Shown here: positions 10,327 to 54,703 of the stretch, piece by piece
How positions within the stretch are numbered: the stretch's first letter is position 1
How the letters are laid out: every line of letters starts with the position of its first letter
Source: Lachnospiraceae bacterium
Lineage (GTDB): Bacteria > Bacillota > Clostridia > Lachnospirales > Lachnospiraceae
NCBI GenBank assembly: GCA_017394885.1
Contig: JAFPWO010000010.1
Location: 152,010-216,009, forward strand
DNA: 64,000 nt
Direction of reading: 5' to 3'
Notes under the pieces: generated by a model
What the model was told of the DNA's origin: nothing
Database searches by the model: none
Seen by the model: the letters and a program-made list of their open reading frames with translations, nothing else
Made by a program: the position numbers and the translations under genes

Positions 10327-11261
10327 ACGGACTGGAACTTTCAAGGAAATACTACGAAACCTTCGGCGCGCCGATGTTGCACGAACAATTCCCGGAGTGG
10401 GAAGGCCGCGTGGCCTGCGGGCTCATCGGCAGCGGCTCGGAGTGCTTCGGCTACGATGACGAGATCTCCCGCGACCACGATTTCGAAGCGGGCTTCTGTC
10501 TCTTTATCCCGCCGGAGGACGAAATGGACCGCCCGGCGGCTTTCCGGCTGGAGCGTGCCTACGCGAAGCTCCCGAAGGAATTCGAGGGCGTGCGGCGCGG
10601 CCTGCTCTCCCCGGTCGGCGGAAACCGCCGCGGCGTCATCCGCATCGATGAGTTTTTCACGGAAAAGCTGGGGACGCCGGACGGCGCGCTCTCCGTCAGC
10701 AGCTGGCTCCGTCTCCCGGAATATGCCTTGTTCGAACTCACGCACGGGCAGATCTGGCGGGACGACGCCCGCCTGCTGGCGCCGGTCGACCATCTCCGCA
10801 TCATGCCGGAGGATATCCGCAGAAAGAAGCTGGCCGGCGAGCTCCTCACCGCAGCCCAGGCCGGCCAGTATAACTATCCGCGCTGCATCCGCCGCGGGGA
10901 TACGGCCGCCGCGCAGCTGTGCGCCGCCGAATTCGTGAAAGCCGTGATGCACGCGGTCTTCCTGCTGAACGGGGAGTATCTCCCCTACTATAAGTGGCAG
11001 TTCCGCGCGTTAAAAGACCTGCCGGTCCTGGCTGACCTTGCGGCCCCGTTCGAGTGGCTGCTCGGCAGCGGGAACGAAGGCGCGCTGTCCGAAGAAAAAT
11101 ATACGAAAATCGAAGAGACCGCCGGCCGGCTTATCGAAGCGCTCCAGGATCAGGAGCTCACGAAAGCTGACTGCGGCGATCTCGAAAAACACGCCTATTC
11201 CGTCAACGACGGCATTGCCGATCCTTCCCTCCGCAATGCCAGCATCTTCGCTGCCCTATAA
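10323..11261 (+). CDS. Nucleotidyltransferase-fold protein of the DUF4037 type
   Basis: The N-terminus MNGLELSRKYYETFGAPMLHEQFPEW...GLIGSGSECFGYDDEISRDHDF resembles the pol-beta-type NTase G[GS]x9-13D.D motif and my recollection of DUF4037 proteins. ATGA overlap with the TPR gene stop. Confidence 0.7.
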   Translation: MNGLELSRKYYETFGAPMLHEQFPEWEGRVACGLIGSGSECFGYDDEISRDHDFEAGFCLFIPPEDEMDRPAAFRLERAYAKLPKEFEGVRRGLLSPVGGNRRGVIRIDEFFTEKLGTPDGALSVSSWLRLPEYALFELTHGQIWRDDARLLAPVDHLRIMPEDIRRKKLAGELLTAAQAGQYNYPRCIRRGDTAAAQLCAAEFVKAVMHAVFLLNGEYLPYYKWQFRALKDLPVLADLAAPFEWLLGSGNEGALSEEKYTKIEETAGRLIEALQDQELTKADCGDLEKHAYSVNDGIADPSLRNASIFAAL

Positions 11262-11299
11262 CGCCGTATGCCTGCTGTTTCAGAAAGGGGCTGCTGTCA

Positions 11300-14200
11300 A
11301 TGAAAAAGAACCATTCCATTAATCGCTTTACAGCGCTGCTGCTGGCTTTCGTGCTGTTTCTTACGGCCTGCGGGCCGGAGAAGCCGACAGCCTATACCTC
11401 CCCGGAAAGCGCCGCAGAGACGACTGCGGCGGCGCAGGATCCCACGGAATCTTCCGACTGGCGCACCGAAGCCCGCGGCCTCTCCGACGAGCCGCTGGAA
11501 CTCCCCGAATGGCCGTACCACAGCCCGGCACTGGACTTTTCCCCCGCGGAGGGCATCCGCGTCACGGCCGAAGCCGGATCCCTGTACGATGACACGGAGA
11601 TCACCCTGGCCCCCGTCATGGAAGACAGCGAGCGCCTGATAAAGATCGCCGAAGACTTCGAGGAGTACGGCGAGCCGCTGATCGGGGCCTGGGAGGTCCA
11701 CGCCGGCCTGGAGGAGGATGAGCACCTGCCCGGCGAATATACCGTCTCCATCGACCTTTCCACGCTGGACCTGGACGAATCCCTCTGGCCTGCCGTGCGT
11801 CTCTACCGCCTCACGGACGGCGGGAAACTGAGCGCGTACAATACGAAACTGGAGGGGAGCATCCTCACGTATTCCAGCGATCAGAACAGCATCACCATGG
11901 CCAGTGTCGCCATCTGCGTGGTCGTCAGCCTCGCGCTGGGCCTGCCGCTCTGTTACGGGATCGAGAATGCGAAAGCAAACTGGTATTACTGGGATGGGAC
12001 CGGGGCGTCCTATCATTACGGAACGACGGACTACGGGAATTATACGGTCAAATGGTCCATGAAGGACGTGGATCCGAAGCAGCAGGAAAAGAACGACCGG
12101 ATGCTGGAGATCGCAAAGAAATACATACCGGAGGCTGAAAAAGACTACGAGCAGGAGATAAAAGACCGCGCAGATGAGGGCGTCCTGTACCGCATGTTCA
12201 ATAAAAACAGGTCCGTGGCGGAGTATCTGAAGGACTATCTGGTACGGGACGAGGAATATCAGAAGATCGCCGCCTCCCTGGAAACGCCGGAACTGATCGC
12301 CGCGGTGGCCAAGGCCATCGATCAGGCCTACGCTTACCTGGGCGGCGTGGTCTACGCGCGCATGCCGAAGGATGACCTGACCTTCCGTTTAAAGCGCACG
12401 GACGGCACGGAAGAGGAAGATACCTACGGCAATTCGGTGGCCGCCATGCTCTCCGACAGCTATATCGAGATCAACGTGGACAAGATCATCGGCATTCTGA
12501 AAGGAGACGCCGAGGGGGAAAAAGCCCGCGACAATATGCTCCTCACGGTCACCCACGAGCTCTTCCACATCTGCCAGGAGCGCTATCATTCCCGCTATCT
12601 CACGGACAGCATCCGTTTTGACGAGATGACGGCGGTGTTTCTGGAGGCGGACGCGAAGAAATATTACCAGGAAGAAAAGATCATCAAGACGGATCCGGAG
12701 CTGACCGCCACCAATTACTGGGGGACGCTGCGCCTGCCGATCGACGTCCTCCCCTGGCTCGGCAGTGAGACAGTCGACTCTGAGCGGCACATCGACAGTC
12801 TGGTCATACGGCATCAGGGATACCTTTTATCCGAATTTGCGAGGTATCTCCGGGAGAAAACCGGCATCCAGGCGGACGGTGTCGATATCTATCGCTGCCG
12901 GAGTTATTATACAACGCCGGTGACGTCGAAGCCGCTGATGGCGGCGTTCCACCTGTCCGAAGTGACGTTCGACAAGCTGTTCCGCCAGTTCTGCCTGGAC
13001 CACAAAGCGGATTTTGCCCGCAATTTCCCCGAGGACGAGGCACGGAAAGAGTACAAGATCTATCCCCGGACCCCGCTGCAGAAGGATACAGGCTCGCACG
13101 TGAGTCTTTCCACCGACGGCAGTTATACCGCCGGCATCCGCTGCTTTACCATGTATGAGGAAAAGCCGCTGCCGCTGCTCATGGTCATGGACAAAGACCT
13201 GGCCGCCCAGCATCCGGAAGCAAACCTGGTGCCGGTAGAAAAGTACATATCCACCCGCAGCGGTGCGTATCTGCCCGGGCCGGAAAAATGGGCCGGCTCG
13301 TCCCTGAGCATGCGTATGTTCCTGGAAGTGTACGGCAGGCTGGGCCCGAACACCGGGACCACAGCCGGCTACACGGTATGGCCGATGGACGCCCCGGACG
13401 AGCCGAAGCTCGAATCCGCGGACGGCGCCTTGGCCGTACAGCTGCCGGAGCCCCGCGGCGCCGCCAAAGAGGGCCTGCTGGACGGCGTCATCCTGAAGAT
13501 CGACTCCTCGGACGGCAAAAAGACCGAGAAGGAATACAGCGCGGCCCTGTTCGGGAAGAAGATCACGATCCCCCTGCATGAACTGCTGGAGGATGCGACG
13601 GAGCAGGCGGAGCTCACGGTGAGCTTTGCGGAATTCGTCTACAGCACGAAAGACAAGGCCTGCCCGGGTTGCTGGTCAAAGGAAGTAAAGATCTCCGTCC
13701 GCAGGGAACAGAAAGGCACGTCCTACCAGTACAACTCCACCACCATGGTGAACCTGGCGGGGGAAATGGCACATCCGGCCCTGCGGGACGCACTTGAGCA
13801 TTCCACGCTCTATCTGGGCGAAGACGGGTCCTTTACCATCACCGGGTCCGGACGCGCCGTGCGGGAGCCGGAGGACGAGAACGACACCGTGGAGGGCTCC
13901 GCCGCCGCGGAGTTTACCATCACCGGCACCTGGGACGCAAAAAAAGGCGAGGGGACCGCGGCGATCCGCGGCACCATCACCTATAAAGAAACCTACAACG
14001 GCCTCAGCGAAAAGGAAGAAGTCAACCACGTGACCGACCGCGACGGGAAGCATCTGACGCTGACCACAGTCAGCCGGATCTTCACGAAGGAAGTCACGGA
14101 TTTCAGCTATGCTTTTTCCGGCACCGGCACCGTGAAAGCAGTGAATCAGGATTTGTACAAGGGCATCGACGGCCTGATCCTGCGCCTGAGCAGCGACTGG

Positions 14201-41446: not shown

Positions 41447-42955
41447 TTATTCGCTGTCGGTCTCCGACTCCGCTTCGTTTTCCGATTCCGTCACAAAATC
41501 GATCGTGAACTCCGTCTCCTCCAGAATATCGTCCGCGAAGAGATCGTTGTCATCATACGCGCGGAGCGTAAAGTGCAGAGTCTCGATCCGTTCCTTTCCG
41601 CTTTCCGTATAGACCTCGTTGTTCACGGACAGATTCCTGACGCTCCGTCTGCCTGCCGGGACCACATTGCCCCACCAGGCGGTCATTTCCTGGCCGTTGG
41701 CTTCCACGTTGTCAAACACGAAGAACAGCTCCACCTCCGATTTATTTTCGAAGTAAACCGTCGCGGTGTGATATCCCCAGGAATCCTCCTCCTCATCCAC
41801 GAAGATGATCGTCATCTGGTCGTTGTCGATGATCACCTTCTCGTTCTCCGATTCAGGGCGGTCCGGAACGACCACCTCTTCCGGCTTTTTGCCGGTCGGA
41901 TACAGCGCGAAGCGTTCCTCAAACAGATCCTCGTAGTTTCTGGCGCTGTACACCTTCAGCAGGAAGGAGATCTCATCGAAGGATTCGATATGGCAGCGTT
42001 CCAGCTGGGTATCCGTGAAGCTGATGGTATCGATCGCCTTCTTTCCGGCCGCGACCACCCTGCCCCATACCGGGTCGTTGGCGTAGCCGTTCACACAGGT
42101 CTCGTCCCAGGAGAAGCTGAGCGACTTGTCGGTCTTGTTTTCCAGGAAGACCTTGTAGCTCTTGCCGTACCAGCCTTCTTCGGCTTCGGGGAAGAAGATA
42201 AAGCTGATCTTGTCATTGTCCACCACGACGATCTCGTCCTCGCTCTCGGGACGGTCCGGGACCTTTATATCTTCCGCGCTCAGGCCGGTCGGATAGCAGG
42301 TCACGATCTCGCTCAGGAGCGGATCCTCGTAATAGTCCTCGTCATTCTGGATGATCAGCAGGAAGGAGAGTTCTTCCGGCTCCTCAATGCCGCAGCTGTC
42401 CAGTTCATCCTGATAGACAGCATAGGTTCCTTCCAGGGTCCCGCCTTTATCCGCGGTCTCGTACACGATCTGGGAAGTCATATAGCCGTTGATGTTCACG
42501 TCGTACCAGGTCAGGCGCAGATCGTAATCCGCCTTGTTTTCCAGCAGGAAATGAATCTGGTATTCCTGGCCGGACCATCCTTCCGCGGCCTCCATCTCCG
42601 TGATCACAAAGCGATATTCCTCCGCCTTGCGGGACAGGATCCCCTCTTCGGGTTCTTCCGTCTCCGGCTGTGTCTCCGTGGTTTCTTCCGTCGGCTCCTC
42701 CTTGGTCGCCTCCGTAGGTTCTTCGGTCGGCGCTTCCGTGGATTCCTCCGCCGGATCGCTGCTTTCGCTTTCCTGCGGCGCCTCGGTGGTCTCCGCCGGC
42801 GCGCTTGTATCCGGGGCCGCCGTCTCCGGGGCCTGGGTCGCAGCTTCTCCTGTGGTCGTCTCTTCCTGGGTAGCCGGGCTGTTTCCGCAGCCGGCCAGCA
42901 GAGCCGCCGTCAGGATCAGGGACAGCAGCAGGCACCCTGCTTTTCTGAATTTCAT
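41447..42955 (-). CDS. Lipoprotein with acidic linker and three tandem ~130-aa repeats, function unknown
   Basis: Lipobox MKFRKAGCLLLSLILTAALLAGCG. The repeats share the pattern ...EGW.G..Y.....ENK.D..L...W.....NGY... and each ends YPTG...VPDRPESE.E..V.DND. Strong GGAAGGAGGA SD. Confidence 0.8.
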   Translation of the reverse strand: MKFRKAGCLLLSLILTAALLAGCGNSPATQEETTTGEAATQAPETAAPDTSAPAETTEAPQESESSDPAEESTEAPTEEPTEATKEEPTEETTETQPETEEPEEGILSRKAEEYRFVITEMEAAEGWSGQEYQIHFLLENKADYDLRLTWYDVNINGYMTSQIVYETADKGGTLEGTYAVYQDELDSCGIEEPEELSFLLIIQNDEDYYEDPLLSEIVTCYPTGLSAEDIKVPDRPESEDEIVVVDNDKISFIFFPEAEEGWYGKSYKVFLENKTDKSLSFSWDETCVNGYANDPVWGRVVAAGKKAIDTISFTDTQLERCHIESFDEISFLLKVYSARNYEDLFEERFALYPTGKKPEEVVVPDRPESENEKVIIDNDQMTIIFVDEEEDSWGYHTATVYFENKSEVELFFVFDNVEANGQEMTAWWGNVVPAGRRSVRNLSVNNEVYTESGKERIETLHFTLRAYDDNDLFADDILEETEFTIDFVTESENEAESETDSE

Positions 42956-43696: not shown

Positions 43697-44467
43697 TTAT
43701 ACCGTTTCTTCGGGAAAATTACAAGTACGGAAGATTTTGCTGACCAGAATACTGAGCTGATACAGCAGGATCATCGGGACCGCGACCAGGATCTGCGAGA
43801 ACACGTCCGGGGGCGTAATGACCGCCGCGAGGAAAAAGATGAAAACGACGGCAAACGGCCGGGCTTTTTTCAGCATCCGCGGGTTCAGTACGCCGAAGCG
43901 GGACAGCAGCGCGCTGACCAGCGGCATCTCGAAAATAAAGCCGAAGATCGTGAAGATCAGCAGGACGAAGCTCAGATAGTTTTCCACGCTGATCTGCGCC
44001 GCGAATATCGTATCGTCGCTGAGCCGGATCAGGAAATTCAGCATGAAGGGGATCGTGACCGTATACGCGAAAAACGCGCCGCCGGCAAAAAAGAACAGGC
44101 CGGCGATCAGAACGACCCGGAGGATCCGGCTTTCCCGGCCGGTCAGCCCGGGCCGGGCAAAGGCGTAGATCTCATACAGGATCAGGGGCAGGCTCAGGAG
44201 AAAACCGGCCAGCGCCGCCACTTTAAACTGCTGCAGCAGCAGTTCCTGCGGCGCAAGATACACGAAGCGGTAGCCGTATTTCAGCCCCATGTCGGTAAAG
44301 ACGGCGATCAGTTTTTCCGACTGCGTGAGGGCCGCCGCCGTCAGCAGGAAAAACACCGCCGCGGCCACCAGGATGCGCCGGCGCAGTTCCGTCAGGTGGC
44401 CCGTGAGGGGCATATCCCCGCCGGTCCCGCCTGTTTCTGTTTTTGACGCCTTATTCTTCCTCTGCAT
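43697..44467 (-). CDS. tatC: Twin-arginine translocase subunit TatC
   Basis: MPLTGHLTELRRRILV plus six TM segments are typical of TatC. The start is uncertain: ATG 44467 overlaps the tatA end, and the alternative is ATG 44413. The first 52 codons of the track ORF overlap tatA in another frame and are rejected. Confidence 0.85.
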   Translation of the reverse strand: MQRKNKASKTETGGTGGDMPLTGHLTELRRRILVAAAVFFLLTAAALTQSEKLIAVFTDMGLKYGYRFVYLAPQELLLQQFKVAALAGFLLSLPLILYEIYAFARPGLTGRESRILRVVLIAGLFFFAGGAFFAYTVTIPFMLNFLIRLSDDTIFAAQISVENYLSFVLLIFTIFGFIFEMPLVSALLSRFGVLNPRMLKKARPFAVVFIFFLAAVITPPDVFSQILVAVPMILLYQLSILVSKIFRTCNFPEETV

Positions 44468-44648
44468 GATCTGCCGGCGCTTCTTCCGCTTTCCCGTCCG
44501 CTTCCGCCTGATCTTCCTCTTCCAGGCCTTCCTTAAACTTCCGGGAAGCTTTTCCGAACAGTTTGGCCAGCTTCGGGATCTGGGTCGGGCCCAGTACCAG
44601 AAGGGCAACCACGACGATCGCAATGATCTCTACGGTTCCGAGTCGCAT
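44451..44648 (-). CDS. tatA: Twin-arginine translocase subunit TatA/E (copy 2)
   Basis: MRLGTVEIIAIVVVALLVLGPTQIPKLAKLFGKASRKFKEG is the canonical TatA TM helix, hinge Gly-Pro and amphipathic helix, followed by an acidic tail. GAAGGAGGAAA SD. Confidence 0.85.
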   Translation of the reverse strand: MRLGTVEIIAIVVVALLVLGPTQIPKLAKLFGKASRKFKEGLEEEDQAEADGKAEEAPADHAEEE

Positions 44649-44884
44649 ACGTTTCCTCCTTCGGGCTTATCTTCCTGCGCCGCTTTTTCCGGCGGCGATT
44701 TCATCTCATCGTGAAAGGGTTCCATGACGTTATCCAGAATATCCTGCTTGACCTCCCCGCTGGCCCGGCGGAAGGACCGCAGGGCTTCTCCGAGCTTTCC
44801 GGCAGCCGAAGGAAGCTTCTCCGGGCCGATCACGACCAGCGCGACGATCAGGATCACCACGATCTCCCAAAATCCGAGTCTCAA
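44630..44884 (-). CDS. tatA: Twin-arginine translocase subunit TatA/E (copy 1), TTG start
   Basis: (M)RLGFWEIVVILIVALVVIGPEKLPSAAGKLGEALRSFRRA parallels copy 2. TTG 44884 lies 6 nt after AAAGGAGGAAG. The longer track ORF upstream has no SD. Confidence 0.75.
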   Translation of the reverse strand: MRLGFWEIVVILIVALVVIGPEKLPSAAGKLGEALRSFRRASGEVKQDILDNVMEPFHDEMKSPPEKAAQEDKPEGGNVCDSEP

Positions 44885-44948
44885 GCGCTTCCTCCTTTCT
44901 TTTTCTCCGCATTTCCCGCCAAGCCCCCGCTGCGCAGCGGTTTCCGTC

Positions 44949-44977
44949 ATCATAGCAGAAAGCAAAAGCCTCCGCAA
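44949..44977 (-). promoter_or_regulatory. Possible internal promoter ahead of tatA-tatA-tatC
   Basis: The minus strand reads TTGCGG (44977..44972), a 17-nt spacer, then TATGAT (44954..44949), in the 105-nt ispD-tatA gap. Confidence 0.35.
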
Positions 44978-44989
44978 CCGGCAGGCGCG

Positions 44990-45673
44990 TCAGCCGCGGG
45001 GCAGATCCTCCGGCGTGGTGATCTTTCTGTTGCCGCCGCTTCCGGGGACGAGCCTCACCCGGTATCCGGCCGCTTCCAGAAGGCTTGCGTCGTCCGTCGC
45101 CGAAAGGCCCTCCGCCTTTTCATAGGCGGAAAGCAGCGCTTCCCGGCGCGCCCCCTGCGGGGTCTGGACCAGCCAGGTCCGGGAGCGGTCCGTGGTGGAC
45201 AGGACATAGCCGTCTTCATCGCAGATCTTTACGGTGTCCCTGCTTTTTACGGCAACGGCGGCCCCGTCCGCGTGATCGAGCGCCGCAAGGCACGCGTCCG
45301 CCATCTCCGCCTTGACAAAGGGGCGCGCGGCGTCGTGGATCAGGACAAATTCTTCCGTGCACAAAAGCAGGGCGCGGTATACGGATTCCTGCCGGGTCGC
45401 CCCGCCCTTTGTGAGGGCAACCGGCGGCAGGGGCGTCTCTTTCTTGTCCCGGCAGAGATCCTCCGCCTGACGGACGATCTCCTCCAGCGCCGCCTGGTCT
45501 TCTTCCCGGCAGGCGATCACGATCTGCCGGATGGTCGGATGCAGCAGGAACACTTCCAGGCTGTGCTGCACCACCGCTTTGCCGTGAAGCGGCAGCAGGA
45601 TCTTGTTTACTTCGCCGCCGAAGCGCGTTCCGCTTCCGCCGGCGGCCAATATCAGGGAACAGGACTTCATCAT
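44990..45673 (-). CDS. ispD: 2-C-methyl-D-erythritol 4-phosphate cytidylyltransferase
   Basis: MMKSCSLILAAGGSGTRFGGEVNKILLPL is a typical IspD N-terminus. ATG 45673 overlaps the ispE stop (ATGA). Confidence 0.9.
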   Translation of the reverse strand: MMKSCSLILAAGGSGTRFGGEVNKILLPLHGKAVVQHSLEVFLLHPTIRQIVIACREEDQAALEEIVRQAEDLCRDKKETPLPPVALTKGGATRQESVYRALLLCTEEFVLIHDAARPFVKAEMADACLAALDHADGAAVAVKSRDTVKICDEDGYVLSTTDRSRTWLVQTPQGARREALLSAYEKAEGLSATDDASLLEAAGYRVRLVPGSGGNRKITTPEDLPRG

Positions 45674-47063: not shown

Positions 47064-47879
47064 TTACAGGGCATTCTTTCTGTATTCTTCCTTCCAGCGG
47101 TATAAAAGCTCAAGGTAGGCCTCGCCCCGCTCATCGGAGGGCTTATCCTGCAGGGCGGCCGCTTCCAGTGCCTTGCCTTCATAGATGGCCAGCTGGCGGC
47201 GCTTCTCCAGGTTGCTCTTAAACTGCTCCAGCCGCTCGGGCGTGAGCGCGTCCAGGATTTCTTCCGGAAGCGCTTCCTTCCCCATCAGCTGATCCAGCAG
47301 GTAGATCTTCTCCGGCAGCATCGGGTCCCGGTTTAAGCGGTAGGCATTCACGAGGCACTGCTCCGCCTCTTCATAATGCGCGAGCTCCGCATAGCAGGCG
47401 CCGGCACTCGTCCAGATCCGGCCGGCCAGCGCGCGGTCAGCGGGCTCCGGCCCCTCCGCGCCTAAAATCTGATTGTAGATCCGCAGCGCACTGTAATACT
47501 GCCCGCCTTTATACAGATAGTCGCCCTTGGTCTTTAAGCGCTGCCCCGGAGAAGACCGCGCGATCTTCTCCAGCTGGGAGCGGAAGGCAAAGAGCTCCGA
47601 ACTGTTGTAATAATGCAGCTCCTGCTGCAGGACGTATAAGATCTCATACAGGCCGCTGCCCTGTTCCTTCATGCGGCGCACGCGCTCCGAAAGCTTCGTC
47701 TGGCCGAGCTGGTCCAGGAAATCAAAGAGCCGCTCGTCGGGGAAACTCTCCTCGATCAGCAGGACGTGATGATTGATAAAATAGCTCAGTTCCTCTCCGG
47801 TATGCAGATGGATGCCCAGCTCCGGGACATAATACGGATGCATCACCGGTTTTGACTGACTGACGATCAGATTGCCCAT
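47064..47879 (-). CDS. TPR-like helical-repeat protein, function unknown (third gene of the giant/Hsp70-like module)
   Basis: GDYLYKGGQYYSALRIYNQIL and AGACYAELAHYEEAEQCLVNAYRL are TPR-like. ATG 47879 lies ~8 nt after GGAGGTG. The track start (GTG 47888) sits inside that SD. Confidence 0.7.
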   Translation of the reverse strand: MGNLIVSQSKPVMHPYYVPELGIHLHTGEELSYFINHHVLLIEESFPDERLFDFLDQLGQTKLSERVRRMKEQGSGLYEILYVLQQELHYYNSSELFAFRSQLEKIARSSPGQRLKTKGDYLYKGGQYYSALRIYNQILGAEGPEPADRALAGRIWTSAGACYAELAHYEEAEQCLVNAYRLNRDPMLPEKIYLLDQLMGKEALPEEILDALTPERLEQFKSNLEKRRQLAIYEGKALEAAALQDKPSDERGEAYLELLYRWKEEYRKNAL

Positions 47880-47895
47880 CCCGTGCACCTCCGCA

Positions 47896-49161
47896 TTACG
47901 ATATCAGGAAATCCCGGCGGATCACCATCCCGCTCGCGGGGAAGAGTTCGCCGAAGCCTTTGTCCACCACCCGTACCGTGACGTGGTTCTCCGAGGAGAA
48001 GGACACGATCACTTCGATCCGGGTCGTCTTGTTGGGTCTGGCCGGCAGCTCCGCGAGGGAAATGCTGATGGTCTCCACCCGCTGCGTGGCGAAGGGCGTG
48101 ATCATCAGCTCCAGCGTATGCACGTCGTCCAGAATGAATTCCGCCGAGGACTTGGCCTCGTACCAGTTGCTGCCCGCGGCCGCCATTACGAACTGCTCGT
48201 TCTTGCCGTCGTGCACCGCGTACAGGCTGATCGTGGAGGCGAGGCGCCCCTCGCAGATACAGATATACGGATAGGCCGAAGCCGGCAGGGTGTTGTCGTA
48301 CGCCACCAGCGCCGCGCCGTCCGCGAACAGATTCTGCCCCGAGAAGACCCGGCGCTTATTGCAGAGCTTTTTGATGAATTCCGGCGCCCAGGCCACGTCC
48401 GAAAAGCCCTCGCCGGTCAGATACACCGAGGAGATCAGCTTTTTCGCGAGCAGCCGGTCCGCGCAGGAGCTTAAGATCGAGTCCGCCATGCGCTCGCCCA
48501 TGGGCTTCTCCAGAAGGTCCAGATCGAAGGCTTCATCCAGCGGCTCGCGCCTTGCCTCGAGGACCTGCGGCTTGCGGCCCCGGATCGCCCGGAACTCGAA
48601 GAAGTCCAGGCCGTTGTCGGTGAGGTCGAAACCCACCACCATATTGGTCCAGCGCTCCTTGGGCTGGCTCGCCACATAGTAGGAAAAGCATTCGGTATGG
48701 CTTAGGAAGCGCACCGTCCCGCGCGGCAGATCGCACAGATCGCAGGCTTCAGTCAGCCGGTCCAGAAGCTCCGGCGTGAGCTCCTTTAAGCCGATCGCCA
48801 GAGAGGCTACTTCCTCCGCGGCATAGCGCACGCGGGGGAGCGTCAGCAGCTGGTCGATATAATGCGCCAGCAGCTGCACGGCGCTGTACTGCACGCCTTC
48901 GATGGTCGCGCTGCCGTTTTTGCGCAGGAGCTTGACCAGCTTATCCACCATGGTGCCCTCGCCCATTAAGGCGCGTCGGTAGGCCTCGGAGCCGATCAGC
49001 CAGCGGTCCTGCCCGCGCAGCTTGCAGAGCACGGTCGGGATCATGCCGGTGGTCTCATTGTCCCCGATCATGACGGCCTGCGGCCCCTTCGCCTCAGGAG
49101 AATAGACGCTGACCTGGCTGTAGGAATCGCACAGATCTATTCCCAGTATTAATTTATCCAA
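47896..49161 (-). CDS. Hsp70/actin-fold protein with degenerate nucleotide-binding motifs plus a beta-rich C-terminal domain; function unknown
   Basis: TTG start at 49161 lies 6 nt after AAAGGAGGAG. By eye it is collinear with the DnaK NBD. LILGIDLCDSYSQVSV matches IIGIDLGTTNSCVAV. MVVGFDLTDNGLDFFEF matches AVYDLGGGTFDISII. VYLTGEGFSDVAWAPEF matches ILVGGQTRMPMVQKKV. NLFADGAALVAY matches NPDEAVAIGAAV. Confidence 0.8.
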   Translation of the reverse strand: MDKLILGIDLCDSYSQVSVYSPEAKGPQAVMIGDNETTGMIPTVLCKLRGQDRWLIGSEAYRRALMGEGTMVDKLVKLLRKNGSATIEGVQYSAVQLLAHYIDQLLTLPRVRYAAEEVASLAIGLKELTPELLDRLTEACDLCDLPRGTVRFLSHTECFSYYVASQPKERWTNMVVGFDLTDNGLDFFEFRAIRGRKPQVLEARREPLDEAFDLDLLEKPMGERMADSILSSCADRLLAKKLISSVYLTGEGFSDVAWAPEFIKKLCNKRRVFSGQNLFADGAALVAYDNTLPASAYPYICICEGRLASTISLYAVHDGKNEQFVMAAAGSNWYEAKSSAEFILDDVHTLELMITPFATQRVETISISLAELPARPNKTTRIEVIVSFSSENHVTVRVVDKGFGELFPASGMVIRRDFLIS

Positions 49162-49219
49162 GCCGGTCTCCTCCTTTCCCGAAGATTTGGCAGCCGCGCT
49201 GCGGGGTTTATCGATTCCG

Positions 49220-52200
49220 TCAGTTGACGGAGAAATATTCTTTGAGCAGGACGTCTTCCCGTCCGAATTCCGTGACCGCTTCCTGCCAGGAGGGATCCGT
49301 CCCGTCCCCGGCCTGCGCGATCAGGCGGTTTAAGCGCGCGAAGCGGTGATTGCCTTCGTGCGTCTCGCCGCGGCCTTCCACGCGGCCTTCTTCCAGCAGA
49401 AGCGGGGCCCCGTCCTGCACCGTTTCGATGCGGTACTCCAGCACCTCGTCGGCAAAAAGCAGCACGGTCTTGACGCAGATGCCGCGGTAAACGTCCGGTA
49501 TCTCGCTCCAGGTATAGTCTTCCTCCGCCTCCTGCGGCAGGATCTGAAGGCCGATCCGGATCTTCCGGCGGGCCGGGTCGCGGTATTCCAGGAAGACCTT
49601 GTCCGCGATCTCGGCCGGCACCCGGATAAAGCGCGCCAGCTTCTTCTCGAAGGAAAACAGCAGGCCCTGATCGTAGAGCTGCTGCAGGAGGGAAGAGGCC
49701 AGCTGCTTTTCTTCCTCCGTGAGGCTCTCCTTCTCGGCGTAATGCTTCGTTAAGGCCAGGCGGCCGATCAGCGGCAGCGCTTCCGTCTTCTTATCCGCTT
49801 CCGCCCAGTTTTTCAGATAGGTGAAGAGGTTCTCCGGCACCGCTTCCCCCGCGGTAAAATACTGCTCGCTCATCACCATGGCGTAGGCGTGCAGGAGGGT
49901 GCGGTCCGGGGCCTTTGACTCCTTAAGGTACAGCCGGACCACCTCATCCAGCCGCTTCGTCCAGCCGGTAAAGAGCATCTGTCCGAGCAGGCGCTCCGGC
50001 AGGTCCAGATAGAGCGTGCCGCTCTCCAGGGTGCGGTCCAGAAGGGTCAGCATCTCCGCCGTCCCGTTATTGTAATACTTGCAGAGGTAGGTCAGCGTGA
50101 TCTCATTCCAGGAGCCCTGGCGGTAGAGCGAAAGCGTAACGCCAAAGAGATCCCGCTCGTAGGCATAGCTGCGCTTGCGGATCTGGCGGCCTAAAAGCCG
50201 CAGCAGAAGCTCCGGCGAAAAGTTCCGGTACCCGAAGCGGAAGACCATCTCCACGGCGGCCTCGTCCTCCTCGCGGAGCATGAAGTTCTCCGCCAGCAGG
50301 CGCCCGGCCTTGGCGTCCAGGAACGGGCTGTCCTTTAAGGCCTTAAGGAGCGCCGCGCTTTCCACGCCGCTTAAGTCCCTGCGCTTTACCAGGCTTAAGA
50401 TCAGTTTCTCGCGGTAGATATCCGACAGCTCTTCCCACAGCGGATAGCGGCGGATCAGCTCCCGGGCCTCAGCCTCGCTTAAGGTCCCGTTCATGCCGCC
50501 CCGGCACAGTTCCAGCCGGAAAGGCAGGCTCTCCGGGCAGAGCTTCCTGCACGGATCGTGCAGGGACTGGGCCGTCTTCATAAAGCGCTTCCGGCGGAAA
50601 ACGGTCTGCGCATAGCGGTTGCCCTCGCGGTCGATAAAGACCAGCCGGCAGTTCCGCGTATAGACCGGGACATAAGCCTTCCCGCGGCGGACAGGATAGA
50701 GATAATCATCCTTCAGTTCCCCGTAGAGCAGCATCACCCGCTCGATGCGGCTGTTGGAAAACTCCAGCTCCACGGTATAGATCAGCTCGGAGAGGATCGC
50801 GGCAGTCTTTTCATCCAGCACGTCCGGGATGAACATCCGCTCGTAGAATTCGGCCATGCCGTCTTCCACCGAGCCCTGCAGGAGCTGCTCGAGGGCAAAG
50901 CTGCGCAGCTGCCGCTCATACAGTCTGTACAGCGGATCCTCCGGCTGATAGTGGCGCAGCAGATAGTGATACAGGTTCAGCCGCGCCTGCGCCAGCTGCG
51001 GGCTGTTGTAGGTATAGTAAAGCTCCACCATGCGCGGGATCTCGCCGCCATAATCTGCGGGCAGGGTCGCCAGATAGTATTCATACAGTTCGGTGAGGCG
51101 AACGTCCTCTTCGATGCCCTTCTCATACAGGCTGTGGCAGCGGGGCAGGGCCTCGCCGAAACGCATGACTACGCCCAGCAGGGCCGTCAGCGTCTCTTCC
51201 GAGGGCTGCGCCTGATACAGATACCGCAGCAGCCGCTCGTTTCCCTCGTGATAGAATTTCTGCCGCGGGACGAGCTCAGTGACTTTGCGGAGCAGCTCCT
51301 CATGGAAGCACCCGTAGCGGACGCCCGGGATCAGGATGCTGCGCTCGAAGGAGCTGACCTCGGTCAAAAGCTCCGGATACCGGTCCAGCAGATCGATCGC
51401 CTCGATCCGCAGAAGGAGCGGGAGCGGTCCCCGGGCAAAGTGCTCGCGGATCTTGTTCAGGGATTTTTCGGGCTGCTCGGCCCACTCGCTGTCTGCGCGG
51501 ATGAGCAGCGGCAGGATCTCCGGCTTATCCCACTCCTTCTCCTTTAAACGGTACAGAAGGCGCAGGAAGCCGTCGGAGAGGCGGTTGCCCTTTTCTCTCT
51601 CCTCTTCCAGATATAAGAACCACAGATAGGAAGTCACGTCCTCGGTGCGGTTTCGCTGCACGGTGGCCCGGATCTGCTCCAGTACTTCTTTTTCCGCATC
51701 CCGCCGGCCCAGCTGCCGCAGGATCTCCGCCCGCAGGATCTTCCGGGGGATATCCGGGGCCTTCAGGCTGTCGCAGGCGTCCAGATATTTCATGACCTGC
51801 ACCTCGATCCCCCGCGGCTTTTCCTTCGCGGCATAGAGCGTCAGCATGCTCTTGGCCAGCTGCAGATCGTTCCGGCGGTACTGTTTCAGTTTCCGCTGCT
51901 CCGGGTCCGGCTCGCGCTCCGGGACCACAGTCAGGCTGACCGTGACTTCATCGCGGCCGGTATTGACGGTAAGGCTGCCGAAGTTTTTGCCGGCATGCAG
52001 CTTTTCGGGGTCGAAATACAGGGGGATGCGCAGCTCGTCGCCGCTGAAATCCAGCCCCGTCCAGCGCTCCTTCGGGAGCCGGATGAAGCTGTTCTCCGCA
52101 CGAACCGTAAAGACCGTATAGCCGCTCCCCTCGCGGCGGATCACCAGTTCGCCGCCGTCGGAAGGCGCGCGCAGCGCGTAATGCTGCGGCTCCGCGTCCA

Positions 52201-52804
52201 CCTTGAGGACAACGGCTTCCTTCGCGCCGGCCGCCACCAAAAACTCCTCCAGCCCCAGCCGGGGATCCGGAGAATTCTTTAAGGCGGGATATAAGGCGCG
52301 CAGGGAATCGTCTTTGAAGAAGGGAAGCTGCAGGAACTGCTCGGACTGGAACAGCCGGAAGACTTTTTCCGGGGCCGCCGCGGCCAGCTCGCCCAGCTCT
52401 TTTACGGTCGTGGGGGCGTCGTCCTGCAGGAGGATCGGCCGGCACACGGAAAAATGATACGGAAGATAAACTTCGCCCGCATTGGTCACCAGCGCGAACT
52501 GCCCCACCAGCTCCACACTGTCCTGGATCTGGTCCGCCCGTACGCGGTATTCCACGGTGGCATTCGCCCCGGCGAAGGAGTTCTGCGCGATCTCGATGCG
52601 TTCGTCATCGGGATAGGCCAGGCCGCGGAACGGCACGCCGTTGTCACTGATGAGCGTGATCTCCCCGCGGAAAATCTGCCCGCAGAGAACCGTCTCGTCC
52701 ACAGGCGAGGTCACGATCCGAATGCGCGGCAGTTTGGCGTCCATCACGCCTTTGGCAAGCTGTGTGATCTTCTTCCGCAAGGCAGCTCCTTCACTTTCGG
52801 GCAT
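49220..52804 (-). CDS. 1194-aa uncharacterised protein: beta-rich N-terminal third, long alpha-helical repeat body, beta-rich C-terminus
   Basis: Uninterrupted 3.6-kb ORF with normal codon periodicity. No catalytic motif recognised and no signal peptide. ATG 52804 lies 13 nt after the rarA stop and has no clear SD, so it is possibly translationally coupled. Confidence 0.8.
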   Translation of the reverse strand: MPESEGAALRKKITQLAKGVMDAKLPRIRIVTSPVDETVLCGQIFRGEITLISDNGVPFRGLAYPDDERIEIAQNSFAGANATVEYRVRADQIQDSVELVGQFALVTNAGEVYLPYHFSVCRPILLQDDAPTTVKELGELAAAAPEKVFRLFQSEQFLQLPFFKDDSLRALYPALKNSPDPRLGLEEFLVAAGAKEAVVLKVDAEPQHYALRAPSDGGELVIRREGSGYTVFTVRAENSFIRLPKERWTGLDFSGDELRIPLYFDPEKLHAGKNFGSLTVNTGRDEVTVSLTVVPEREPDPEQRKLKQYRRNDLQLAKSMLTLYAAKEKPRGIEVQVMKYLDACDSLKAPDIPRKILRAEILRQLGRRDAEKEVLEQIRATVQRNRTEDVTSYLWFLYLEEEREKGNRLSDGFLRLLYRLKEKEWDKPEILPLLIRADSEWAEQPEKSLNKIREHFARGPLPLLLRIEAIDLLDRYPELLTEVSSFERSILIPGVRYGCFHEELLRKVTELVPRQKFYHEGNERLLRYLYQAQPSEETLTALLGVVMRFGEALPRCHSLYEKGIEEDVRLTELYEYYLATLPADYGGEIPRMVELYYTYNSPQLAQARLNLYHYLLRHYQPEDPLYRLYERQLRSFALEQLLQGSVEDGMAEFYERMFIPDVLDEKTAAILSELIYTVELEFSNSRIERVMLLYGELKDDYLYPVRRGKAYVPVYTRNCRLVFIDREGNRYAQTVFRRKRFMKTAQSLHDPCRKLCPESLPFRLELCRGGMNGTLSEAEARELIRRYPLWEELSDIYREKLILSLVKRRDLSGVESAALLKALKDSPFLDAKAGRLLAENFMLREEDEAAVEMVFRFGYRNFSPELLLRLLGRQIRKRSYAYERDLFGVTLSLYRQGSWNEITLTYLCKYYNNGTAEMLTLLDRTLESGTLYLDLPERLLGQMLFTGWTKRLDEVVRLYLKESKAPDRTLLHAYAMVMSEQYFTAGEAVPENLFTYLKNWAEADKKTEALPLIGRLALTKHYAEKESLTEEEKQLASSLLQQLYDQGLLFSFEKKLARFIRVPAEIADKVFLEYRDPARRKIRIGLQILPQEAEEDYTWSEIPDVYRGICVKTVLLFADEVLEYRIETVQDGAPLLLEEGRVEGRGETHEGNHRFARLNRLIAQAGDGTDPSWQEAVTEFGREDVLLKEYFSVN

Positions 52805-52817
52805 ATTCTGTTATATT

Positions 52818-54140
52818 TTACATCAAACGGCTCAAAAACTCCATATATTTTTTTATTTCTTTTTCGTAGCCGTTATCCCCCGGTTCGAAGAACTTCGTCC
52901 CCACCAGCTCGTCGGGCAGATACTGCTGCTTCACGAAATGCCCCGGGTAATCGTGGGCGTATTTATAGCCGGTTCGTTCCTCGGTATCCCCGGCGGTTTC
53001 CACATAGATGTTCTTAAGATGCGGCGGGACCGTCTTCATCTCGGTCTTTTTCACCGCCGCCAGGGCCTTGTCGATAGCCAGATACGCCGCGTTGCTCTTC
53101 GGCGCCGTGGCCACATAGACCGCCGCCATGGCCAGCGGGATCCGCCCCTCCGGCATGCCGACCCGTTCCACGGTTTCCGAAGCCGCGATCGCGACCTGCA
53201 GGGCCCGCGGATCCGCCATGCCCACGTCCTCCGCCGCGCAGATCATAATGCGCCGCGCGATGAACTTGGGATCTTCTCCGGCATAGAGCATCCGTGCCAG
53301 ATAATAGACCGCCGCGTCCGGATCCGACCCCCGCATGCTCTTGATGAAGGCGGAGATCACGTCGTAGTGGTTGTCCCCGGTCTTGTCGTACCGGACGTTG
53401 CGGCGCTGGATGCACTCCTCCGCGACCGCCGTCGTGATGCGGATCTTCCCGTCCGGGCCCGGCTCCGTGGTGAGCACGGCCAGCTCCACCGCGTTGATGG
53501 CGCGGCGCGCGTCGCCCCCGGCGATATCCGCCAGAAACGTCACCGCCTCTTCCTCGATCTCGGCACTGTACATGCCCATGCCCTTCTCGCCGTCATACAC
53601 GGCCCGGCGGATCAGGACCTCGATATCCGCGGCCGAAAGGGGCTTTAACTCAAAGATATTCGAGCGGGACAGCAGGGCTTTGTTGACCTCGAAATAGGGG
53701 TTTTCCGTGGTCGCGCCGATCAGGATCACCGTCCCGTCCTCCACAAAGGGAAGCAGATAGTCCTGCTGCGCCTTGTTGAAGCGGTGGATCTCATCGATAA
53801 AGAGGATGGTCTTCTTCCCGTAGGCCGCGCGGTTGTTTTTCGCTTCCGCCACGACTTCTTCCATGTCTTTTTTGCCGGAGGTGGTGGCGTTGAGCTGCTT
53901 GAACTCCGCCTTCGTGGTCGCGGCGATCACCTTGGCCAGGGTCGTTTTCCCCGTGCCGGGCGGGCCGAAAAAGATGAGGGAGGAGAGCTTGTCCGCGCGG
54001 ATCGCCCGGGTAAGGAGCTTGCCCTCGCCGAGGATATGCTGCTGCCCAACGACCTCTTCCAGCGTGGTCGGACGGAGCCTCGCCGCCAGCGGCCCCTCCT
54101 TCTCCAGAGACTTCTCATTCATATATTCAAACAGATCCAT
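52818..54140 (-). CDS. rarA: Replication-associated recombination protein A (RarA/MgsA AAA+ ATPase)
   Basis: MDLFEYMNEKSLEKEGPLAARLRPTTLEEVVGQQHILGEGKLL, Walker A GPPGTGKTT, Walker B ILFIDEIHRFNK. ATG 54140 sits behind AGGAAAGG. The upstream 61 codons of the track ORF run through an intergenic repeat and are rejected. Confidence 0.9.
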   Translation of the reverse strand: MDLFEYMNEKSLEKEGPLAARLRPTTLEEVVGQQHILGEGKLLTRAIRADKLSSLIFFGPPGTGKTTLAKVIAATTKAEFKQLNATTSGKKDMEEVVAEAKNNRAAYGKKTILFIDEIHRFNKAQQDYLLPFVEDGTVILIGATTENPYFEVNKALLSRSNIFELKPLSAADIEVLIRRAVYDGEKGMGMYSAEIEEEAVTFLADIAGGDARRAINAVELAVLTTEPGPDGKIRITTAVAEECIQRRNVRYDKTGDNHYDVISAFIKSMRGSDPDAAVYYLARMLYAGEDPKFIARRIMICAAEDVGMADPRALQVAIAASETVERVGMPEGRIPLAMAAVYVATAPKSNAAYLAIDKALAAVKKTEMKTVPPHLKNIYVETAGDTEERTGYKYAHDYPGHFVKQQYLPDELVGTKFFEPGDNGYEKEIKKYMEFLSRLM

Positions 54141-54330: not shown

Positions 54331-54359
54331 ATTATAACAAAAAGACGCGGCAGCTACAA
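54331..54359 (-). promoter_or_regulatory. Putative rarA promoter overlapping the upstream terminator
   Basis: The minus strand reads TTGTAG (54359..54354), a 17-nt spacer, then TATAAT (54336..54331). This implies a ~180-nt leader containing repeat copy 1. Confidence 0.45.
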
Positions 54360-54369
54360 GCCGCCGCGT
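54337..54369 (-). terminator. Rho-independent terminator ending the DUF1294...lipoprotein gene run
   Basis: The minus strand reads ACGCGGCGGC-ttgta-GCTGCCGCGT followed by CTTTTTGTT. Confidence 0.8.
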
Positions 54370-54394: not shown

Positions 54395-54703
54395 CTATGA
54401 TTCCTCCAGCACGGCCAGCACCGCGTCATAATCAACGCGGTACGGATACCGGATCAGCATGGACAGCCCGCTCATATAATAGGACCGGCTGACGCTCTGA
54501 AGGAGCGCGCCGGAGCGCTGTTCAAAAAAAAGTGCGCCGTCCGGAGTGATCAGGTACATCCTCGCCGCCGAAAGCGGATCCCCCTCCGGTCGGGATTCGG
54601 TCAGCAGCACAAAGTGAATCGTCTCGTCGCCGAAAGATCCTTCCTCCCGGAACGTGAGCAGTCCCGCCCGCGGATCACTTCCCGTCAGGCTTTTCCGAAT
54701 CAT
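54395..54703 (-). CDS. Hypothetical 102-aa protein
   Basis: ATG 54703 overlaps the upstream lipoprotein gene end by 29 nt. No motif recognised. Confidence 0.55.
   Translation of the reverse strand: MIRKSLTGSDPRAGLLTFREEGSFGDETIHFVLLTESRPEGDPLSAARMYLITPDGALFFEQRSGALLQSVSRSYYMSGLSMLIRYPYRVDYDAVLAVLEES

Follow-up and report, generated by a model that had tools for sequence, protein, structure and literature searches.

Three consecutive genes in a 64,000-nt stretch of Lachnospiraceae DNA (contig JAFPWO010000010.1; "the window" denotes this stretch as a whole, and all open reading frames (ORFs) discussed lie on its minus strand) encode a giant protein of the Pfam family DUF5717, a 421-residue Hsp70 derivative of the family DUF5716 and a small tetratricopeptide repeat (TPR) protein. 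With a probability of roughly 45%, we propose that the products of this trio form a soluble cytoplasmic housekeeping complex of the scaffold or holdase type, built around a pseudo-Hsp70, in which the Hsp70-like subunit does not cycle. This reading draws on the Hsp70 fold of the 421-residue protein and the degeneration of its phosphate loops, on the lack of a J domain in the trio, on natural fusions of the Hsp70-like protein with the TPR protein, on the anatomy of the giant, on the conserved linkage of the three genes and on the lack of transmembrane (TM) segments in their products.

Fold and domain structure of the Hsp70-like protein

The 421-residue protein is a true Hsp70 derivative. The model obtained with AlphaFold2 (AF2) from 40 homologues reached a pLDDT of 91.2 and a pTM of 0.88, and its best 50 Foldseek matches in the PDB were all Hsp70s, with E-values down to 1.1e-20 for DnaK. 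Besides DnaK, these matches include BiP, Hsc70, mortalin, Ssz1, Sse1 and Ssb, and they cover both the nucleotide binding domain (NBD) and the beta-sandwich part of the substrate binding domain (SBD-beta). Docked states provide the better fit (7krv and 7kru, TMq 0.65-0.67, root mean square deviation (rmsd) approximately 7 Å) when compared to the undocked ADP states 4ani, 2v7y and 5obu (rmsd 20-22 Å), and in the model itself SBD-beta is docked onto the NBD, as in the ATP-type or 'stimulating' states of DnaK. In line with the structural matches, a family profile of 141 sequences was aligned by hhalign to E. coli DnaK, whose reference sequence had been checked against PDB chains, and gave a collinear match of residues 2-420 to 1-514 (E 4e-4). 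A profile of this size was required, as a smaller one of 40 sequences reached DnaK at E 0.05 and in hhalign covered only residues 3-126, without yielding a collinear alignment of full length. The preliminary description of this DNA had recognized the Hsp70 fold by eye, inclusive of the SBD-beta sandwich, and had set it as a point to be checked; AF2, Foldseek and hhalign all bear it out.

The relationship is not apparent from single sequences. The protein is assigned to DUF5716_C with an E-value of 1.5e-91 (306.9 bits, cut-off 34.7); Pfam gave no HSP70 match for it at E<=0.1, nor one to DnaJ or GrpE in the trio, the NCBIfam DnaK score is 13.2 bits at a cut-off of 822, and a single-sequence phmmer search against the PDB returned nothing relevant. 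Its fold makes the protein an Hsp70, yet it fails what defines that family functionally, namely the nucleotide motifs, the presence of subdomain IIB and of a lid, and scores above the curated thresholds.

NBD, linker and SBD-beta follow one another collinearly with DnaK from residue 1 to approximately 502. In the NBD, which corresponds to DnaK 1-388, gaps take the place of about 80 residues of subdomain IIB, which in DnaK contributes the GrpE site and a wall of the adenosine pocket. The linker, which in Hsp70s couples the ATPase to substrate binding, is represented by a hydrophobic YICIC as the counterpart of VLLLD in DnaK. Within SBD-beta, the motifs LPARPNKTTRIEV and VVDKGFG parallel IPPAPRGxPQIEV and AKDKxTG of DnaK, and PxRPxKTTR and DxGFG are nearly invariant in the family. 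SBD-beta stops where the lid of DnaK would begin, and a helical lid (SBD-alpha) is absent, the chain ending after its last beta strand at residue 421. The idea of a 'split lid', with the TPR protein as the detached lid of the Hsp70, was rejected on sequence comparison only, which revealed no similarity to DnaK 502-638. No canonical dnaK turned up when the window and the first 80 homologous loci described below were searched by tblastn with E. coli DnaK.

Five cysteines of the Hsp70-like protein, C11, C46, C233, C267 and C303, are invariant or nearly so in close homologues, with C11 located in the former phosphate-1 loop and C303 in the interdomain linker; in the family at large these two are only the plurality residues. 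One relative (P0367) carries a Glu-rich, acidic low-complexity insert of about 70 residues at the point where the chain passes from subdomain IB back to IA.

The nucleotide binding site

Residue conservation was evaluated over 140 representatives at no more than 50% identity. With G7-I-D9-L of the 421-residue protein as the equivalent of G6-I-D8-L in DnaK, the phosphate-1 motif reads C11-D-S-Y-S where DnaK has G10-T-T-N-S (DLCDSYS vs DLGTTNS), the phosphate-2 motif reads F-D179-L-T-D-N-G where DnaK has Y-D194-L-G-G-G-T (FDLTDNG vs YDLGGGT), and the adenosine motif is T-G250-E-G-F where DnaK has V-G341-G-Q-T. Among the representatives, position 11 is occupied by C, S, G, N or T and positions 12-13 mostly by D, N or E, rendering the phosphate-1 loop acidic, and the GGG of phosphate-2 is absent across the family. 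The site of K70 in DnaK holds a Lys in only 35 of the 140 representatives (25%), and E171 of DnaK aligns to L153/S154, one helical turn before E157. Among the elements of an intact nucleotide site (DxGTT, K70, E171, DLGGGT, the adenosine GG and IIB), only D9, D179 and G250 are retained, and invariance across the family as a whole is highest in G250-x-G-F, P373-x-R375-P..T-R381 and D400-x-G-F-G.

Several points weigh against the interpretation as a complex around a non-cycling pseudo-Hsp70. The residue equivalences to DnaK were derived from the profile alignment and the secondary-structure register, not from coordinate superposition. D9 (D8 in DnaK) is an Asp in 85% of the representatives, D179 (D194) is Asp or Glu in 90%, G250 (G341) is invariant and G252 nearly so, such that the earlier claim of lost nucleotide motifs stands for both phosphate loops and only in part for the adenosine motif. 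K74 of the window protein falls on K70 of DnaK and is kept in this clade, E157 is 78% conserved and close to the invariant H155, H155-x-E157 is situated at the helix that bears the catalytic Glu in Hsp70s, and the family also conserves the kind of hydrophobic linker seen in allosteric Hsp70s. Beyond the nucleotide site, a physical association of the giant with its two partners is predicted from operon linkage, and the term 'holdase/assembly platform' designates a class of function rather than a demonstrated activity.

As D9, D179, G250, K74, H155/E157 and the linker are all kept, the main rival is an active, specialized Hsp70 machine that would bind and hydrolyze nucleotide via a remodeled site, with the giant and/or the TPR protein standing in for the J-protein and the exchange factor. 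The equal degree of conservation of NBD and SBD-beta would also agree with such an activity. We nevertheless consider it unlikely, given the replacement of both glycine-rich phosphate loops with an acidic phosphate-1 loop, the low frequency of Lys at the K70 site, the deletion of subdomain IIB and the failure to find a J-domain signal in the trio either with Pfam or in an hhalign analysis of the giant's helical insert. The non-cycling pseudo-Hsp70 remains the interpretation that we prefer.

The TPR partner and its fusions to the Hsp70-like protein

For the third protein, the single-sequence Pfam search gave TPR matches below threshold. The family profile nevertheless retrieved the TPRs of CHIP (E 5e-7), Sti1/Hop (1e-5) and FKBP51 (1.5e-5) from the PDB, as well as those of Tah1, RPAP3 and Tom70, which confirmed its earlier description as TPR-like and showed that the best natural PDB matches of its repeats are TPRs that bind Hsp70 or Hsp90. 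The repeats are preceded by a very conserved non-TPR N-domain of 105 residues, for which no relatives were detectable, and followed by C-terminal helices. The carboxylate clamp, mapped by eye, is not intact: in K116-x-K-G-D120 a nearly invariant Asp takes the place of the clamp Asn, the Asn of the second repeat is variable and the Arg of the third is absent. The C-terminus of the Hsp70-like protein reads ..RRDFLIS and not EEVD.

Four representatives of 708-727 residues, from at least four lineages, are fusion proteins in which the Hsp70-like part is followed by the TPR part, in the order of the genes. The fusions were identified by hhalign with a probability of 99.1% (E 4e-19) and by blastp at 2e-17. 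Two of the fusion clusters hold further full-length fused members, and in all of the 10 full-length fused proteins that were tested the two modules are complete, with approximately 10-25 residues of linker connecting them. As the two proteins are found fused into one chain, this Rosetta-stone evidence from sequence argues that they very probably act as a complex.

The giant scaffold protein

Both DUF5717_N (E 6e-175, 584 bits) and DUF5717 (E 2e-63, 215 bits, cut-off 25) match the giant above their gathering thresholds. The tentative remark in the preliminary description that homologues of these proteins are catalogued as domains of unknown function in Clostridia was accurate, the families being DUF5717_N, DUF5717 and DUF5716_C. 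In the AF2 model (pLDDT 85.3, pTM 0.56), an N-terminal helix is followed by an immunoglobulin (Ig)-like domain, a helical insert, a second Ig-like domain, a solenoid, a beta domain, a further stretch of solenoid, a beta-sandwich and two helices (Table 1; residue numbers of the giant refer to the 1194-residue frame from ATG 52804). The succession of beta-rich, helical and again beta-rich regions had been read correctly from the sequence; the beta regions are Ig-like sandwiches according to AF2 and Foldseek, not a beta-solenoid.

In Foldseek searches the N-terminal ~300 residues matched ASH/MSP-type Ig domains with E-values of 1e-6 to 1e-4, among them those of ciliary central-pair proteins, the SPD-2 domain of CEP192, titin Ig pairs and P. 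gingivalis 2qsv, and the solenoid matched Ski3, Ctr9, XAB2/Syf1-type proteins, Naa15, IFT-A and PPR10 over 800-970 columns (E 4e-5 to 2e-4). At the sequence level, no relatives of the giant were found among solved structures at E<=1, and Pfam gave no TPR match. The best-conserved motif, EEFLVxxGxK, is located in the helical insert, with E186, E187, F188, L189 and K195 invariant. An 'SPD' loop in close relatives had prompted the idea that this insert (residues 122-200) might hide a J domain, but SPD is not kept in distant members and hhalign against the J domain of E. coli DnaJ gave a probability of 0.2%, and the idea was abandoned.

Neither Pfam nor Foldseek revealed a catalytic or effector domain in the giant, for which no catalytic motif could be assigned in the preliminary description either, and as judged from the model it is predicted to be a non-enzymatic scaffold made only of interaction modules. 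The lack of a signal peptide noted earlier for the giant extends to the whole trio, as no TM or signal-like hydrophobic segment is present in any of the three proteins.

Conservation of the trio and its gene neighborhood

A pattern scan with one genome per species yielded 122 confirmed relatives, of which the best 80 loci were examined. All of these best 80 originate from Lachnospiraceae or Clostridiales, with genera such as Cuneatibacter, Hominifimenecus, Fusibacillus, Lientehia, Paralachnospira, Lachnotalea, Fimimorpha, Ventrimonas and Butyrivibrio. The order giant, Hsp70-like protein, TPR protein on one strand was found by tblastn in 79 of the 80, the exceptions being contig ends, and with the window proteins as reference the median identity is 50% for the Hsp70-like protein, 35% for the TPR protein, 29% for the giant and 70% for RarA, the product of the adjacent gene. 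When 1.8 billion representatives were searched exhaustively with a profile, 1,599 clusters of the Hsp70-like protein were retrieved at E<=1e-3 and 607 at E<=1e-30; at a clustering of 50% identity the former number is a lower bound for the family, nearly all members of which are 400-450 residues long.

Distant relatives keep the order of the trio though the flanking genes differ. In the very distant locus L086, with a G+C content of 31%, we find rarA, the giant, a fusion, a 404-residue protein and valS; in L088 and L089 a short giant (891 or 849 residues), the Hsp70-like protein (500 or 470 residues), the TPR protein (261 residues) and valS; and in L090 the giant, the Hsp70-like protein (415 residues), the TPR protein (269 residues) and a 388-residue protein. 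Co-occurrence of the three genes in related genomes, which had been put forward as a test of the module, is thus seen in close and distant relatives alike. The short giants of 849-891 residues (L088:6259-8934, L089:3560-6109) lack the second Ig-like domain and the first half of the solenoid, and it is with these shortened giants that the distant Hsp70-like proteins of 470-500 residues (P0367, P0278) go together.

At nine loci (L077-L080, L085-L087, L090 and L091) the TPR gene is directly followed by a fourth gene, whose product of 388-404 residues combines coiled coils with two central TM helices and matches no Pfam family above threshold. The trio might accordingly be seen as a membrane-proximal or developmental scaffold in envelope, division or sporulation processes, where the Hsp70-like and TPR proteins would tether the giant to the membrane-bound coiled-coil partner, and the architecture of the giant, consisting of interaction domains throughout, would suit such a structural scaffold. 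The three core proteins, however, are devoid of membrane segments, an HMM search found no homologue of the fourth gene in the window nor in L001-L076, L088 and L089, and sporulation or division genes are not consistently nearby in the loci inspected. We regard a membrane scaffold as distinctly improbable and retain the soluble cytoplasmic complex.

If the trio assisted RarA (MgsA) at replication forks or in recombination, with its scaffold recruiting or regulating this AAA+ protein, this would be in line with the position of rarA in the window, directly upstream of the giant at a distance of 13-37 nt without a terminator between them. The gene also adjoins the trio (within 400 nt) in 34 of 58 loci and lies within 6 kb in 49 of the 58, including three divergent orientations, and it is found immediately upstream in L086 and upstream in L091. 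It is not in the neighborhood of L088, L089 and L090, however, and in Fusibacillus, where the trio is flanked by genes for an HD protein and shikimate kinase, it is set apart by unrelated genes. RarA furthermore evolves far more slowly than the three proteins, as evidenced by the median identities, and is near-universal in bacteria, unlike the trio. On the other side of the trio, ispF is the next gene in 32 of 72 loci. Adjacency to rarA and to the isp genes is a lineage-specific synteny, the invariant unit being the trio itself; for rarA, inherited gene order is the better explanation, and the RarA accessory is a poor candidate compared to the housekeeping complex.

An anti-phage or inter-genomic conflict system with an Hsp70-like sensor and TPR scaffolds is highly improbable, for although large TPR proteins and degenerate NTPases are frequent in defence systems and five GenBank 'Bacteriophage sp.' records contain homologues (MT835486.1, which is L091, MT835988.1, MT835719.1, MT837190.1 and MT837634.1), there were no PADLOC and no meaningful PHROG matches for the three proteins, no copies were found on plasmids or in IMG/VR viral contigs, an effector domain is absent according to Pfam and Foldseek, and in the loci examined the trio resides at a fixed place among housekeeping genes, its divergence rising together with that of rarA across loci. 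The 'Bacteriophage sp.' records are UNVERIFIED contigs from human faecal viromes, and L091, with rarA upstream of giant, Hsp70-like protein, TPR protein and fourth gene, is a fragment of a bacterial chromosome and not a phage, as it carries bacterial chromosomal synteny. The earlier argument for a core function rather than a mobile or defence island is upheld by these data.

Gene starts and transcription unit

The three minus-strand ORFs of the preliminary description were recovered at 49220..52804, 47896..49161 and, in its longest form, 47064..47888, with intergenic spacings of 58 nt between the giant and the Hsp70-like gene and 16 nt between the latter and the TPR gene. The TTG start of the Hsp70-like gene at 49161, with its strong Shine-Dalgarno (SD) sequence, was likewise found as described, AGGAGG standing 8 nt ahead of it. 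For the TPR gene, an ATG at 47879 behind GGAGGTG leads to a product of 271 residues; the alternative GTG start of the longer ORF (274 residues) is less likely. The ORF of the giant is real, but the 1194-residue start ascribed to it, ATG 52804, lacks an SD sequence, while TTG 52780, 8 codons further in, is preceded by GAAGGAG. As the public gene calls (1186 residues) and the consensus N-terminus of the family, 'MRKKI..', fit this start as well, the product of the gene probably comprises 1186 residues.

The G+C content of the window is approximately 59%, without a break in composition at the locus and with the trio equal to its surroundings, and a protein identical to one of the window proteins (P0001) is annotated in a metagenome-assembled genome of the Lachnospiraceae. 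Upstream of the trio lies rarA (Pfam MgsA_C, E 5e-71; gene call of 440 residues), and downstream ispF, ispE, ispD, two copies of tatA and tatC. This placement between rarA and ispF-ispE-ispD had been stated before, together with the lack of a terminator, and indeed only weak hairpins occur within the trio, whose number (16 vs 12.6 +/- 4.3 in shuffled sequence) represents no excess. A strong terminator-like hairpin with 8 GC pairs in its stem is situated between rarA and the small ORF 54395-54703, and it probably ends the preceding transcription unit. With this strong hairpin upstream of rarA and only weak ones within the module, the transcript in the window genome probably begins at rarA and covers rarA, the trio and ispFED.

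Two further observations concern the downstream region. Directly past ispD, two tandem tatA-like genes and tatC (approximately 43700-45000, minus strand) place Tat export within a string of isoprenoid and housekeeping genes. At 41447-42955 (minus strand) a predicted lipoprotein of 502 residues is encoded that has a signal peptide with a Cys, is very acidic, has no Pfam match on record and contains at least two internal repeats with blocks of the type '..VPDRPESE(D/N)E..V(V/I)DND..'.

Table 1. Features of the trio and its surroundings, in window coordinates unless a locus is named
Feature	Position	Strand	Evidence
Giant scaffold gene (DUF5717_N + DUF5717)	49220..52780	-	ORF, Pfam, SD, public gene calls, AF2
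Giant, Ig-like beta-sandwich 1 (residues 28-121)	52442..52723	-	AF2 strands, Foldseek
Giant, helical insert between Ig domains (residues 134-191)	52232..52405	-	AF2 helices, conservation
Giant, Ig-like beta-sandwich 2 (residues 199-295)	51920..52210	-	AF2, Foldseek
Giant, TPR/HAT-like alpha-solenoid, first part (residues 301-675)	50780..51904	-	AF2 helix pairs, Foldseek
Giant, small beta domain inside solenoid (residues 677-740)	50585..50776	-	AF2 strands
Giant, alpha-solenoid, second part (residues 746-1068)	49601..50569	-	AF2, Foldseek
Giant, C-terminal beta-sandwich (residues 1070-1143) and two terminal helices (residues 1154-1190)	49235..49597	-	AF2
Hsp70-derived protein (DUF5716), 421 residues, TTG start	47896..49161	-	ORF, SD AGGAGG, Pfam, AF2, Foldseek
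Hsp70-like NBD (residues 1-295); IA, IB and IIA present, IIB cut to about one helix	48277..49161	-	hhalign, residue statistics
Interdomain linker and SBD-beta (residues 296-421), no helical lid	47899..48276	-	AF2, Foldseek, profile alignment
TPR partner, 271 residues	47064..47879	-	ORF, SD, family profile vs PDB TPRs, conservation by region
TPR partner, N-domain (residues 1-105)	47565..47879	-	
TPR partner, TPR repeats (residues ~107-187)	47319..47561	-	
rarA (MgsA-type AAA+), probably first gene of the same transcript; genomic context of the trio	52818..54140	-	Pfam, gene call
Terminator-like hairpin upstream of rarA	54345..54369	-	stem 11 bp, T-run
Fourth gene, L086	L086:9971-11185		
Fourth gene, L090	L090:11083-12249		
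Fourth gene, L079	L079:~12107-13297		
Fourth gene, L091	L091:~11080-12174		

Proposed function and significance

In the complex that we propose, the Hsp70-like subunit would not undergo the canonical ATP/J-protein/GrpE cycle and may, on the precedent of Ssz1, be locked in one conformation to bind peptides or act as an adaptor. The small TPR protein would hold this subunit on the solenoid platform of the giant, the platform may in turn present or assemble one or more cytoplasmic clients, and in some lineages the fourth, coiled-coil protein with its two TM helices could bring the complex to the membrane. Rather more tentatively, the trio may constitute a new bacterial machine derived from Hsp70, in which a permanently docked NBD/SBD-beta unit, nucleotide-independent or differently liganded, a dedicated TPR adaptor and a 135-kDa Ig/TPR platform would fulfill a core, constitutive task, for instance in assembling a specific complex or controlling its quality, in a bacterial family that is among the most abundant of the gut. 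That such a machine evolved independently as the prokaryotic counterpart of fixed eukaryotic Hsp70 complexes, such as the ribosome-associated complex (RAC), is a suggestion to be taken with equal reserve.

The preliminary description called the module uncharacterised. In agreement with this, the full-text literature searched contained no functional study of DUF5716, DUF5717 or PF18980, PF18983 and PF18984, and no relevant literature on Hsp70-like proteins of Lachnospiraceae or on a non-canonical bacterial Hsp70 with a TPR protein. A function for the trio would be the first for DUF5716 and DUF5717, which are conserved single-copy genes of the Lachnospiraceae, dominant commensals of the human and ruminant gut. 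Hsp70s belong to the most thoroughly studied of all proteins, yet their biology in bacteria is essentially that of DnaK, HscA and HscC with their J-proteins. The family described here is large, comprising 1,599 or more clusters; its members have lost the lid, subdomain IIB and the canonical nucleotide loops, and they are always accompanied by a TPR protein and a giant scaffold protein. With natural fusions and confident models at hand, its function is open to direct testing.

Comparison with known systems

With DnaK and the canonical Hsp70s (PF00012), the Hsp70-like protein shares an actin-like NBD with subdomains IA, IB and IIA, a hydrophobic linker and an eight-stranded SBD-beta sandwich, all in the same order. 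Similarities in sequence extend to the N-terminal GIDL and to LPxRPxxxxRIEV...V.DxGxG, which corresponds to IPPAPRGxPQIEV...AKDKxTG in DnaK. In contrast to DnaK, it lacks IIB and the helical lid, has C-D-D/S-Y-S instead of G-T-T-N-S in phosphate-1 and T-D/E-x-G instead of G-G-G-T in phosphate-2, does not conserve the catalytic Lys across its family and scores far below the Pfam and NCBIfam thresholds, and a J-protein or GrpE partner is absent from the trio operon.

The TPR protein finds its closest counterparts, the best PDB matches of its profile, in CHIP, Hop/Sti1, FKBP51, Tah1, RPAP3 and Tom70, and it is coupled genetically, and sometimes covalently, to a protein of Hsp70 fold. It differs from the Hop/CHIP type in the clamp, where K-x-K-G-D120 stands against K-x-K-G-N in Hop, the second Asn is variable and the third Arg is lacking, in a partner without EEVD and in the conserved 105-residue non-TPR N-domain without detectable relatives. 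The likeness to eukaryotic chaperone/co-chaperone arrangements to which the preliminary description had pointed holds as an analogy only, given a clamp that is not intact and the missing EEVD tail. For the giant, the similarity to Ski3, Ctr9, XAB2/Syf1, Naa15 and IFT-A, and to the ASH/MSP Ig domains of Hydin-like proteins and CEP192, is at the level of fold only, with TM-scores of 0.07-0.14, as expected for flexible repeat proteins, and no chain among the Foldseek PDB matches reproduces its domain combination from end to end.

The nearest functional parallel is provided by Ssz1 of RAC and by Sse1/Hsp110, which are also structural neighbors of the Hsp70-like protein (6sr6_C, E 7e-18; 2qxl_B, E 8e-17). 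Both are atypical Hsp70s, which instead of cycling as chaperones work as stable subunits or as exchange factors, and Ssz1, with its truncated SBD, is a constitutive partner in a fixed complex that can serve as a model for the Hsp70-like protein. Ssz1, however, is an ATP-binding protein that has kept IIB, and a J domain is present in its partner Zuo1, whereas the partners in the trio are a TPR protein and a giant composed of Ig domains and solenoid, and ribosome association is without evidence. The resemblance to Ssz1 and Sse1 is one of functional analogy, not orthology. Should the three proteins indeed form a stable complex, the conversion of an Hsp70 to a fixed subunit with a structural or adaptor role, known in eukaryotes from Ssz1 and Hsp110, would also have taken place in bacteria.

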